A stretch of 64,000 nucleotides of DNA, taken from contig OX597816.1 of assembly GCA_951406725.2 (NCBI GenBank), positions 100,254,001 to 100,318,000 on the forward strand. The letters run 5' to 3'. The translations under genes were made by a program, and so were the position numbers. The notes beneath the pieces were generated by a model, which searched no databases, had not been told where the DNA came from, and was given only the letters and a program-made list of their open reading frames with translations. Positions 11,124 through 16,560 of this stretch are shown here, in pieces (position 1 is the first letter of the stretch; each line of letters opens with the position of its first letter). The stretch comes from Octopus vulgaris (lineage: Eukaryota).

Positions 11124-12344
11124 ACATTCTAATAATTGTTTTATTTCATTCAGTTTGTTAATGTCTTTACTTCTAATCAAGCACAATACTGGCTAATAGT
11201 CACTAAATTTGAAACGTGCAATGAAAGCAATTTAGAAAAAAAATTGATTTTTATCATGCAAAAGCATTTATTATTTAGGTCACTTGCATTTGTATTTTCT
11301 TAATATTTTCCTAAAATCAATCTATGTCCAATAAACTGACAAAAGATGGGTAATAGAATGAAATTGCTTACTACTGGAACACATTAATTGGGAACACACA
11401 TTCTAGAACAACATGAATTATCAATTTATGTGTATCCCTAGTTAAATATTTAGAAAAATAACTATGATAACTACAGTAACTAAGTCATGTTACAGTTAAA
11501 TTATACAAAGACAATTATTTGTAATAATTCTAATCTACTGTAGCAAAACTGCATAAAGTATTCTGCTATAATGTTGTATTTGTATATTTCAAGTAGTTAA
11601 TTCTCTAACAAGGATGAAATACTCAGGTAGGTGACTATAGGTTAATGGATTGGGAGTAGAGTAAAAATACATTTGATGGATAGAATACCAGACCTTTGCA
11701 AATTAGTTCTGAGATATTTTGATATTAATTTCTTATAGTTAGATGAACTGACTCACCTAGAATAAATTTTTCTGCTCAGAAATACAATTAGAATCCTGCA
11801 TTGGATTTCATCTTGTGAATCATGGACTCTGAGTTTAGTAGTAGATGTATTTGGTCATTTTGACCTTTAATAATATATACTGAGCTGTGATATATCATCA
11901 TGATAGGCAAACTAAAGCTGTAAATATTACCTATCAATTATAAAAGTAAATTATTTCTAATTCAATATAAAAATACTAGAACCTACACTAAGTATTTACT
12001 CATGGCACATGACTGATTCTGATTATGTGGTATATTATTTAAGTTACTCAATCCTTACATAGATTGGATAGGTCATCTTCAACATAGTGTTATGTCACTT
12101 TTGTAAGGTTCAACCACTTCAGATCAACTTTCACAACTTTGTTCTGTCCTCATTGATCTTCCATTTCCATAGATTCCTTTCTCTTGGATCATTAATTAAT
12201 TCATTACTCACTTGTGATCCTCTATAAGCATCATGCCTTCTTTATCATCTCTCTAGTATACTATAATTGATTCTTTTTATAATCTAGTACGTAGTTTTGC
12301 TCTAAGTTTGTGCTCCTTCATTAGCATTGCCAATCCAGCAGAAA

Positions 12345-14175
12345 AAGCTTACTTGATTTCTTTGTAGCCCTTGCACATACTCCACATCCACTGTCCAACT
12401 TGCCTGCATAGTGTTGCCATCTGAGCAATGTGCACATGGAAAGTTGCTTTGTTGCTCACGTGGATTCCCAGGTTGCACACCAACTCTAACTCTGGGATTA
12501 CATTGCCTGCTGGTCCCATGTACTTCAGTTGTAGTTTGTATGTGGGTTGATTGTGGAGCGCTTGAAATTTTGCAGCATTGAACTGCATATTATTCTCATC
12601 TGCCCACTTATATATTGCATTCAGGTCATTCTGCAGTCTTAGGATGTCAGTAGGATCTTTGATCGCCTGCAATACTTTTGTATCATCGGCGTGGCTGGTA
12701 AGTGTGGCTGAGGGCATATCCAAGAGAGCAACCACAAACTGTAGTGGTCCAAGCTCTGTTCCCTGGGGGACTCTGCTGAAGATTGTTGTCACTTAGAGAG
12801 AGCACCCTTTGCTGTGGCAGCCTGACTTTTGCCCTTCAGGAAATCATGCAGTCACTCTGCCAGTCTACCTGCAATACTGAGGTCATGCAATTTGTGACAC
12901 ACCACCCCATGCTCGATCTTGTCAGAGACCTTGGCAAAGTCAAGATATATCACATTTGAATGGTTGAGCTGTTGTTTTAGTACCCAGTTGAAGTGCTGTA
13001 GTAGCTGTGTTAGGCAGCTCCTTCCAGGACAGAAGCCATGTTGCATGCCTAAGCAAGTCATTTTCTTCTAGGAATGTGGTCAATTTTTTTCTGACAATGC
13101 ATTCCATGATCTTGATAACATGTGAGGTCAGAGAGATAGGCCTGTAGTTTATAGCATCTGCTCTGCTTCCTCCTTTGTGGACAAGGCAGATTATTCCTTC
13201 TTTTAACATTTGAGGAAATGTACTGCATTCAAGGGAACTCTGAAAAAGCATTTGCAGTGGTTTTGCAAGAGTTTTCTTGCATGTTTTTAACAGAATTGCA
13301 GGGAGTCCATCTGGGCCTGTGGCAGAGTATGAGTTTATCTCATCAATGGCTGAGAATACATCCTCTTCTGTAATATCAATGTAATTGATGGTTACCTTTT
13401 TCTCTTGTAGATTAGGTGTTGAACTCATCAGGTCTGCTTATTTTCATGTTTTCCAGTGAAGTGAAAACACTATGGAATTTTTTATTGAGTGCTTCATTTA
13501 TCCTCTTGGGGTCTAGAGTCAATGAGCTGTTTTCATCAAAGGGTAGCCCTATCCTGTAGTGCATTGAGGCAGACTCTTTTGTGAACTTGTAGAAGGCTTC
13601 AGGGTTCCTTTTTATATTTTCCACCACCCTGGCTTCTCTGTTTACCCTTTCTTTTTCATGGGAGAGTCTGATTTTATTCTCAGTCTCTAGGGATGCCATT
13701 TTGAGGTAGGGATTTTTGCTGTGTTTAAGTGATTTGAGATCTTTATCCTCCATCTCATTAGGATACTCCTATCATGGGGTATAATTTTCTTATGTGTAGT
13801 GGCTTTCTTCTCTGGGACAAACACATATGGTTCATATTATTGACATGAACTCATTGAATTTCATGTCAGTATCTTGCATGGACAGACTTTTAAGCCAGTT
13901 TTGCTGGAGTATCTCTTCGTTGATAGACTTCCAGTCAGCCTTGTAGAAGTTCAGGTTGGCTAGTGCTTGGGATCCAGCTGTGTGATATGATTCTTTAATT
14001 AGCTTTGGACCATATATTTAGTGAGTTGATGGTGAGAGTTTTATGTTGTGGATAAGGTTCATATTGTTTGTGAAGCAAAGATCCAGGATATTGTTATTTC
14101 TGGTTGGGGAAAGTTTGGTCAGCTCCATGAACATTATTTTTGTGATATCTACTAGAGATTCTGCCTGATTGCATT
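12345..14175 (-). mobile_element. CR1/L2-group LINE ORF2 relic (endonuclease C-terminus plus RT), frameshifted
   Basis: PTRNNNILDLCFTNN (APE end), SATGPDGLPAILLK, NYRPISLTSHVIKIME, QHGFCPGRSCLTQLL, IYLDFAKVSDK, VPQGTELGPLQF, HADDTK. Confidence 0.92.
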
Positions 14176-15519
14176 CTTACTTATAAGTAATATTTTGAAC
14201 TATGTTTAATCATTCTGAATGTCCTTTATTTTGAAGTTCATTAATTCATCTGATGAAAAGGGTTTCTTTACAATGATATGATATTTTCATTAATCAATTA
14301 AAGGAGTCATTAGAAACAGATGTAATGGATTGACAGCTGTACTTCTATTGTTATTCATGTATGTATGTATAAATTTAAGTCACAGTATATGAATTCAAGT
14401 AATCTGGTGGTACTCATAAAAAAAGCTCATTAATGCATCATTGTACAAAACATGAAATATATAGCATGATAGAAGTAAAAATGACAAGGAGTGCATAAAG
14501 TCATGAATGACAGAAATAGTTTGATGAAATTTTATTTAACAATATTTTCTGCATTTTGCATTAATGCAGACATCTAAGTAACTTATTTATTATTAAATAT
14601 ATTAATATAAATTTACATGTTTTTATGTTATGAAACAATTTTTTTCATGTTTAAATTTTCTTATTGTTAAATAAACTTTGTCAACAAAATATTTCTCTGT
14701 CATATTATTATTTTTATAATAGCCTTTACATAAGTAATCCTCCTAATTTTGTACCTCTAGAAATTTATATTAGCTTGTATATAATAGCACTGGTAACTTC
14801 ACAACTTATAATATACCTCTTAGATTATAATTAATATATAGTTAGCATGTTCTATCGCCCCAGTATTCCTTTAGTAAATGCCAGTGATCAGTCTTTATAG
14901 ATTCCACCTAATAAGAAAATAATTAAGTATATGAATGAATATCAAACTAATTCTATATAATTTTTTTCTCTCTCTATTCTCGAAAAATTTGGTATATATT
15001 CAAAATTTATCTTTTTGGTTATAATATTCTTTTTGATAACCATAAATTTTATTGTTATACAATATAACATTATTGTTTAAATCAATCACCTATAGTATCC
15101 CATGATAAAATTTCCTCTGTATTATCCCCATTGGTCTTGCCTCTAACTGGTAATTAACATCTTGATTTGAGGTCTTCCACTACCCAACCTCATTATAGCC
15201 AGTTACTTTATACTACTTCAAAAATAATCTTGACAAGTTTTATGACTATACCCACTATGATTCTGTCAACTCCCTCATGCCCTTTCCTAACAGACACTAT
15301 TCCCTAGTCTCAGATTTGATAAACAAGACTAATAAATTAAAACTGAACCAAAATCAGTGACAAGCTATGACCCAAACAGAATTTTTCCTGATGTCTTAGA
15401 AACTTCTAAGCTGAAGTGACAATAGCATGGATTTTGTCTGTCTTCTTACCATCTCAGAGGATTTAAGTAAAATTATACAAATGTATCCATCTGATTAAAA
15501 AAATTCTATCTATGTATTT

Positions 15520-15607
15520 ATGTAGCTGAGGATAGCCCTGCATTTAACTTGATGCAATGATTGCATTGTTCAATTAAATGGGGCTGCTTGAAACGGTCAT
15601 ACTGCAT
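15520..15607 (+). ncRNA. Type I hammerhead ribozyme-like motif (partly decayed), left arm of an inverted pair
   Basis: ATGTAG-CTGAGGA(15526-15532)-long stem II (AGCCC/GGGCT, CATTTAA/TTAAATG, TTGA/TCAA, TGCAA/TTGCA)-GAAAC-GGTC-ATA-CTGCAT. Stem I has 6 bp; stem III has a C.A mismatch consistent with CpG decay. Confidence 0.62.
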
Positions 15608-15632
15608 TACCTCTGGATATCCTGTTATTTTG

Positions 15633-15681
<49 letters not shown>

Positions 15682-15743
15682 ATATATGTGTGTGTATATA
15701 TATATATAAAATCAAAATAAGCAACAAGGATATCCAGAGGTAA

Positions 15744-15835
15744 TGCAGTACGATCGTTTCATGCAACTCCATTTAATTGATCAATGCAATCATTTCATTA
15801 CATCAATTTAAAATGTAGAGCAATCTTCAGCTGCA
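15744..15835 (-). ncRNA. Type I hammerhead ribozyme-like motif with intact core, right arm of an inverted pair
   Basis: Minus strand: TGCAG-CTGAAGA-extended stem II-GAAAC-GATC-GTA-CTGCA. Stem I is TGCAG/CTGCA; stem III region is the palindrome ACGATCGT; predicted cleavage after the GUA at 15749. Confidence 0.72.
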
Positions 15836-15974
15836 CAAAGAGAATTTAATTAAATTAGAACAGAAGGGCACATTAATATAATTTTACCTAAAATCTCCAA
15901 GGAGTTAAGGAGATGGACAGAGAACATGTTGTACCAACAACATCATAGTTGTAACTTATTATATATATATATAT

Positions 15975-16560
15975 AAACAGCTCAAGCATCATCAAACTCA
16001 CCAAAATATTTGCTGGTGACTCCAGGGTCCAGAAAATCATCAACAAAGAAGACTGAATTGAAATGCATTCTGATCTACATGCTGTAAGCCAATAGGTAGA
16101 CAAAAACAAATTAAAGTTAAGGGAAAATTTTGAACTGATGCATTTTGGAAAAAAGACTACATTCAAACAACCATTTTCTCTTCTATCAGAGGAACCACTT
16201 ACAGCATCCAATAATGTCAGAGACCTAGGGGTAATTGTTGACAATAATCTGAACTGGAGTGTGCACATTAACAAAATGTTGACATAGCTCCATAATGAGT
16301 TTCTAAGGTGTTCAAAACTTTCTGGTCCAGGGAGCAAGATGTCATCATTCCTGTCTTCTCTTTTGTGACAACATCCAGAATATTGCTACCCCTGTGGTCT
16401 CACTACACAAAACAAAATATCACGAGAACTGAGTCACACTAGCAAGCATTCACTTAAAAAATTAAAAGCATGACTGACCTTGATTATTGGGATCACCCTA
16501 AAACATTGAAACTTTATTCTCTCCAGCTCTACCATGAGTGCTGCACCAGTTGCACAATGG
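15975..16560 (+). mobile_element. CR1-group LINE 3' RT fragment
   Basis: KIFAGDSRVQKIINKED*IEMHSDLHAV..FELMHFGK..SNNVRDLGVIVDNNLNWSVHI, then LDYWDHPKTLKLYSLQ. Confidence 0.85.

Follow-up and report, generated by a model that had tools for sequence, protein, structure and literature searches.

The window, as the whole 64-kb stretch of DNA analyzed here is called, contains two type I hammerhead motifs on opposite strands, which point toward each other from either side of a 72-bp (TA)n/(TG)n microsatellite (15637–15708). The plus-strand motif (15520–15607) is composed of stem I (15520–15525 paired with 15602–15607), the core sequences CUGAGGA (15526–15532) and GAAA (15590–15593), and a helix II of 57 nt (15533–15589); its predicted cut lies after 15601, and its stem III is damaged, with 6 of 8 dimer pairs left. 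In the minus-strand motif (15743–15836) the corresponding elements are stem I (15836–15831 with 15748–15743), CUGAAGA (15830–15824), GAAA (15760–15757), and a helix II of 63 nt (15823–15761), followed by a stem III that is a perfect 8-nt palindrome, ACGAUCGU, at 15757–15750. Both motifs, read directly from the sequence, are located where an earlier note on this DNA had placed them, with a helix II of about 60 nt in each and a predicted minus-strand cut after 15749. The stem I sequence UGCAG/CUGCA given in that note has to be amended to UGUAG/CUGCA for the plus-strand motif, and the type I core (CUGANGA, GAAA, and UH), which had been considered intact in one motif, is present in both, the damage to the plus-strand copy being located in stem III. 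Positions 10.1 and 11.1 form a U.U mispair in both motifs, instead of the G10.1–C11.1 pair of the type I hammerhead.

The sequences carrying the motifs are referred to as the plus arm (14700–15637, 938 bp, plus strand) and the minus arm (15708–15956, 249 bp, minus strand). The earlier note had described two copies of about 150 bp facing each other across about 70 bp; the facing arrangement and the repeat tract were found as described, but the inverted homology of the arms is longer (15435–15919, 74% identity by blastn). Beyond the 5′ end of the minus copy lies a (TA)8 repeat (15960–15975), so that this copy has TA repeats on either side, as expected for an insertion into a TA tract. A short palindrome marks the start of the minus arm (15947–15956); in many young copies the sequence breaks off there or switches to an inverted copy. 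Decayed reverse transcriptase (RT) fragments of LINE type were observed on both flanks (12300–14200, minus strand; 15976–16560, plus strand). The core pattern with a long spacer matched the 64 kb three times, compared to a mean of 0.01 matches in 100 shuffled sequences. The third match (14250–14324), beside the two facing motifs, belongs to a plus-strand motif at 14241–14333, which has a 56-nt helix II and a 9-bp stem I and is followed by a TATG repeat. It represents another high-copy family (941 candidates), reached 27.6 bits with the covariance model described below, and has a stem I incompatible with that of the plus arm for dimer formation.

Whether the hammerhead fold is real was assessed on a structure alignment of 25 of 85 motif matches, chosen to span the subfamilies of the window's lineage. 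The core letters were invariant across the 25 copies, 88.7% of the 550 cells were paired, and 12 of 22 pairs showed change on both sides (4 of 6 in stem I, 4 of 4 at the base of helix II, 3 of 8 in the distal hairpin, and 1 of 4 in stem III). None of 500 shuffles reached the covariation score, although kinship among the copies inflates this test, which related sequences can pass without any structure; controls with slid pairing positions were paired in 24–53%. At 10.1–11.1 the aligned copies had G–C (n = 7), G.U (n = 4), A–U (n = 1), or no pair (n = 13). With RNAalifold alone, the base of helix II was missed, while stem I, the distal hairpin, and stem III were recovered. Within young copies, 2 of 348 core cells were substituted as compared to 70 of 4,169 elsewhere; this conservation is slightly above that of the remaining sequence and resembles neutral decay, and the comparison between subfamilies was therefore relied upon instead. 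The earlier note had held that helix II stays paired despite its different sequence in the two copies, and had named covariation as a check; the changes on both sides and the invariant core between subfamilies bear this out.

A covariance model built solely from 14 distant relatives assigned 63.8 bits to the minus-strand motif and 53.2 bits to the plus-strand motif, with a best background match of 16.3 bits. Scoring against the Rfam hammerhead models, as the earlier note had suggested, left both motifs without a match either at the gathering score or at E ≤ 10. Sub-threshold miRNA-like Rfam matches to the palindrome (E ≤ 10) were rejected. A tandem of the minus-strand motif had its minimum free energy (−49.2 kcal/mol) in the dimer fold, in which stem III has 8 pairs, and the hammerhead fold of its monomer lay 3 kcal/mol above the minimum; the dimer fold of the plus-strand motif was 12.4 kcal/mol above the minimum of its tandem. 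Among the eight motifs tested in this way, the dimer fold was within 0.1 kcal/mol of the minimum for two and 2.4–12.4 kcal/mol above it for six, and the energies are thus only suggestive. The sequence is a genuine type I hammerhead motif with a palindromic stem III suited to dimers, as had been proposed; it is predicted to cut only as a dimer, the minus copy being predicted to be competent and the plus copy to be damaged.

Copies elsewhere in the genome (2.8 Gb in 227 contigs) reveal the element from which the arms derive. An endonuclease piece of 108 aa had 17,084 first-look candidates, 150 of which were scored, and twenty longer regions contained ORF pieces of up to 839 aa with RT motifs and a CxCx5C linker. 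In the ORFs of L106, L107, and L113 the RT is followed by a GIY-YIG endonuclease that is C-terminal and whose GIY-YIG-like core lacks the inner cysteine pair and shows CxxC preceding the conserved E and CxH following the conserved N, but no CCHH. The motifs RWK and DKT occur in L113, and DKT also in L125. Pfam detected GIY-YIG in one of two proteins (E = 0.0008, below the gathering score), and the sole match of the endonuclease piece was a sub-cutoff winged-helix domain. RWK, DKT, CxCx5C, CxxC, and CxH are listed as features of the Hydra clade of Penelope-like elements (PLEs) in section 11 of Craig 2021 (PMC8557442), and the RT resembles, by eye, the excerpted Hydra proteins of its supplement. 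The putative placement in the Hydra clade is based on these motifs. An origin from Naiad elements was rejected, as the endonuclease is C-terminal and carries Hydra motifs. Several of the Hydra ORFs (L106:1895–4411, L107, and L109) contain long Asn-rich inserts around a conserved block between the RT thumb and the endonuclease.

The link between this coding region and the arms is provided by single loci. RT and endonuclease remains lie directly upstream of plus arm-like sequence in L121 and L122, and in L123 the whole 938-bp plus copy was matched at 80.7%, downstream of endonuclease remains. These three loci match the plus arm at 73–81%, L124 does so partly, and L125 showed no match to it. The Penelope-like origin proposed in the earlier note is thus borne out by copies in which the sequence continues into remains of RT and GIY-YIG that carry Hydra motifs. 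Its distinct non-autonomous element is not supported, as L121, L122, and L123 run from ORF remains into plus-arm sequence. For the minus arm, one of 25 loci (L180) contained, within the flank examined, an 89% relative joined to an endonuclease end in the same direction. The exact subfamily with the 63-nt helix II was found directly behind endonuclease remains in none of the 25 loci, and its short copies could therefore partly stem from a non-autonomous donor. An intact ORF was found for neither window subfamily. L113, of a more distant subfamily, has two direct repeats of 983 bp that are 99.5% identical, 4,199 bp apart, and contain the motif in each; the upstream motif is followed by a conserved leader and the start of the ORF, and the downstream motif by a TA tract. 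Two small leader hairpins behind the motif (L011:1655–1740, L113:1455–1550, and 20 further aligned loci or copies) are kept across subfamilies, mostly through sequence identity and less by compensatory change. The 3′ ends of genomic copies lie immediately before or behind these hairpins, which both window arms lack.

The relationship between the two arms was analyzed by genome-wide searches and tree calculation. The minus arm had 651 first-look candidates, and the best of the 40 that were scored were 95–97% identical. The stretch upstream of the plus-strand motif yielded 1,653 candidates, of which 40 were scored, with main matches of 76–89% over 14900–15500; other copies reach further 5′ than the plus copy. 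In a tree of 65 rows the two arms were located on opposite sides of a branch with 100/100 support, although the loci had been picked by likeness to each arm, which favors separation, four duplicate loci were omitted, and the bootstrap had not fully settled. The arms are 80.5% alike, and their nearest other copies are 91% and 97% identical. As the arms thus belong to different subfamilies, two separate insertions are likely, and the simplest reading would be that these occurred at different times and in opposite directions into one TA tract. Taken together, we regard it as about 85% probable that both arms are 5′-truncated 3′ ends (3′ UTR and pLTR) of Hydra-clade PLEs, of an older (plus) and a younger (minus) subfamily, which probably entered one (TA)n tract successively and in opposite orientations, the microsatellite being the likely shared target, and that each carries a hammerhead predicted to cleave as a dimer only.

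Alternatively, the palindrome might have arisen by a single insertion event, through inverted duplication during retrotransposition, or represent a two-armed mini-element. Inverted copies are indeed common in the family: 10 of the 29 distinct loci matching the minus arm have the head-to-head inverted partner typical of such elements, and opposite-strand pairs 100–700 bp apart are reported in the portions consulted of Cervera 2014 (PMC4209133). These usual pairs are head-to-head, but the window pair is tail-to-tail around a microsatellite, and a convergent partner was found in only two of the 29 loci, the window locus and L029, which also combines two subfamilies. Among the first 100 listed matches of the genome-wide pattern, 11 neighbor pairs within 1 kb comprised, by eye, 8 divergent, 2 convergent, and 1 tandem pair. 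The tail-to-tail order, the different subfamilies of the arms, and the TA repeats on both sides of the minus copy make a single event highly improbable. Because the arms come from two subfamilies, the palindrome looks incidental, a likely by-product of shared target choice. It is also rather unlikely that the short minus arm is itself a retrozyme- or SINE-like non-autonomous unit of about 250–335 bp that spreads by means of the Hydra enzyme. Ten of 27 other listed loci start within 8 nt of the 5′ point of the window copy (reference positions 1799–1814), as such a unit would, but the remaining 5′ ends are scattered, 25 loci carry upstream 3′ UTR, no tandem arrays were seen in the examined loci, and the short palindrome at the shared 5′ point could be a hot spot of truncation.

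Other explanations concern what the motifs do, or no longer do, and were addressed with RNA reads and predicted folds. Of each of three raw RNA runs about 6% was sampled; 265, 328, and 197 reads on both strands fell on a young copy, and the read ends showed no pile-up at the predicted cut, with even depth across it. The RNA ends that the earlier note had suggested looking for at a cut of the 15749 type were thus not detected in these samples, which are weak tests as the species of the runs may differ from that of the genome and most reads come from decayed copies. At 94% likeness, 19, 21, and 8 reads were assigned to 14000–15630, of which 44 of 48 fitted in part only. No locus-specific reads were seen in the sampled runs, and no poly(A) tail occurred among the loose read ends listed. 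The sampled reads hence speak neither for cleavage nor for transcription of the window locus. RNA reading through the locus is predicted to fold into the palindrome hairpin (−233 and −211 kcal/mol) rather than into the ribozyme. The earlier note's expectation that transcription in either direction yields both a ribozyme and a dsRNA hairpin is thus borne out, by prediction, for the stable hairpin only, which would bury the ribozyme. A host regulatory module consisting of a bidirectional ribozyme and a dsRNA hairpin, serving as a source of editing or small RNAs, could draw on this very stable hairpin and on the presence of the family in RNA reads of both strands. The mutually exclusive folds, the few and mostly partial reads at 94% likeness, and the recurrence of convergent pairs as by-products (the two among the first 100 listed matches) leave very little room for it. 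Somewhat less remote, but still improbable, is that the motif of the window subfamilies is a relic, whose U.U mispair and long helix II left the donors catalytically dead. The sampled reads without cleavage ends would agree with this, as would the weak cleavage of those metazoan PLE hammerheads that were assayed in Cervera 2014 (PMC4209133), but the core is invariant over 25 copies of many subfamilies with covarying stems. Moreover, natural U10.1–U11.1 is the best-tolerated mispair according to the cited part of Perreault 2011, and an axolotl ribozyme that contains it is active (Cervera 2020; PMC7229834).

In the preferred reading of two successive PLE insertions, the pattern of integration would follow from the element's own replication. 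The traits (TA)n insertion, pLTRs, and inverted 5′ copies, which are those of Hydra-clade PLEs, were all found. The window's subfamilies were represented by 76 distinct motif copies, of which 40 had a microsatellite 20–59 nt after the cut and 24 had one at 110–179 nt, after a further leader-derived tail; five had a tail but no microsatellite within 200 nt, and seven fitted neither pattern. None of 45 3′ segments began at the cut site, and integrated copies thus appear to come from a template with an intact junction. The full element would have the structure pLTR–ORF–pLTR, each repeat containing a hammerhead. Present together on a single transcript, the two motifs would pair via the 8-nt palindrome, swap their stem I strands, and release unit-length RNA. 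A (TA)n tract would be nicked by the endonuclease, and the start of reverse transcription would lie about 40 or about 125 nt beyond the cut site, on a template whose junction is uncut or religated; synthesis would often stop early. Since only one motif of this family is present per direction of transcription at the window locus, neither has a partner in cis. Both window motifs are likely passengers, because the plus copy is damaged, the minus copy lacks a cis partner, and the palindrome would trap the minus copy.

The long helix II may have a role of its own. An AUUAAA hexamer lies inside it in both motifs (15573–15578, plus strand; 15772–15777, minus strand), in each case 23 nt before the predicted cut, where it might act as a polyadenylation signal. 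AAUAAA or AUUAAA was found within helix II in 80 of 105 distinct long-helix motifs (loci biased to the window's lineage). In nearly all carriers of the seven largest clusters the hexamer ends 22–26 nt before the cut, and a U/GU-rich tract follows the cut in most copies of six of these clusters. Poly(A) sites usually show this order of hexamer, cut, and U/GU-rich tract. The hexamer was in excess, with 14 of 25 clusters against 3.1 by shuffling, a difference inflated by kinship. Long helix II could thus conceivably be a functional module that holds a polyadenylation signal inside the ribozyme; given the placement of hexamer and tract, folding and 3′-end processing would be rivals for a single site, and in the upstream pLTR the signal could be masked by the hairpin. 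We consider this possible but doubtful: the sequence is AT-rich, the clusters are related, a hexamer in helix II occurs by eye in only about three of nine lineages and is absent in about six others, and no poly(A) read was among the listed loose ends. If true, more than 12,000 motifs not seen by Rfam would be latent cut-or-stop signals in the genome.

The element resembles the Hydra-clade PLEs as far as these are described in the consulted parts of Craig 2021 (PMC8557442) in its C-terminal GIY-YIG domain, Hydra motifs, (TA)n target, and type I hammerhead with palindromic stem III near the 3′ end. Several Hydra families in File S2 of that study have flanking triplets identical to those of the minus-strand motif, and in 14 of 25, counted by eye, helix II starts with the U.U that the earlier note had remarked on in place of G–C; this mispair is not atypical. 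In contrast, helix II has about 12–26 nt in the listed Hydra families compared to 57–63 nt in the window, and Hydra-1_Obim has a short helix of other sequence. The listed Hydra elements are also generally smaller (<3 kb) than the element found here, whose unit measures about 4.2 kb and includes Asn-rich inserts as well as a 3′ UTR of more than 1 kb. The minimal PLE hammerheads described by Cervera and de la Pena (2014; PMC4209133, portions consulted) share the location in pLTRs, the dimer-type palindromic stem III, many solo truncated copies, opposite-strand pairs, and thousands of copies per genome, but differ in a helix II of 7–8 bp, a conserved G10.1–C11.1 pair, and an extra base after A9. 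The excerpts of a 2019 review (PMC6765202) give the same pLTR location, stem III type, and opposite-strand pairs. A helix II of about 50 nt is recorded in File S2 of Craig 2021 (PMC8557442) for two PLE-X1 elements of spike mosses, flagged there as deviating; these plant elements are endonuclease-less and rDNA-targeted and belong to another clade. Metazoan non-LTR retrozymes, in the extracts of PMC7229834 and Li et al. (2026; bioRxiv 10.64898/2026.07.22.740005), likewise have type I hammerheads and derive from pLTRs, and axolotl HHR_Amex2 (PMC7229834), whose helix II has U.U at its base, cleaves. Retrozymes consist of non-coding units in tandem (PMC7229834, same extracts), whereas the copies found here are dispersed truncations of a coding element; no tandem array was present at the window locus, whose sequence continues, in copies elsewhere, into ORF remains. 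A literature search on octopus, Penelope, and hammerheads with long stem II returned, as far as it reached, no description of the long-helix variant. Thus, as far as these searches reach, what appears to differ from published work is confined to the length of helix II in a Hydra lineage of animals and to the abundance of this variant.

This abundance is considerable. The long-helix pattern (50–66-nt spacer) had 12,515 exact matches in the genome compared to 31 for the reversed control, and the short-helix pattern (8–37-nt spacer, same stem III) had 4,614 compared to 50. Stem I had at least 4 bp in 21 of the first 30 long-spacer loci, taken unselected, as compared to 3% at random. The long-spacer matches are spread over several unrelated-looking families beyond the window's own. 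Long-helix motifs thus outnumber short ones in this genome and escape Rfam, and descriptors restricted to short helices would undercount animal ribozymes. The window locus itself is ordinary retroelement debris, and the family matters modestly. A lineage with G–C, G.U, A–U, and U.U at 10.1–11.1 and near-identical paired pLTRs offers a natural test series for the dimer-cleavage model, which for Penelope replication still awaits proof in vivo. About one quarter of the first 100 listed matches belong to a family that is very uniform and apparently young, its helix II measuring 51 nt (e.g., L142:1501–1570). Among the matches listed, short-helix families have many non-standard 10.1–11.1 pairs (A.G, A.A, A.C, A–U, U–A), and one retrozyme-like array of short-helix motifs (G000:C1:33099609–33105375) has at least 11 listed copies, mostly with a period of 545 bp.
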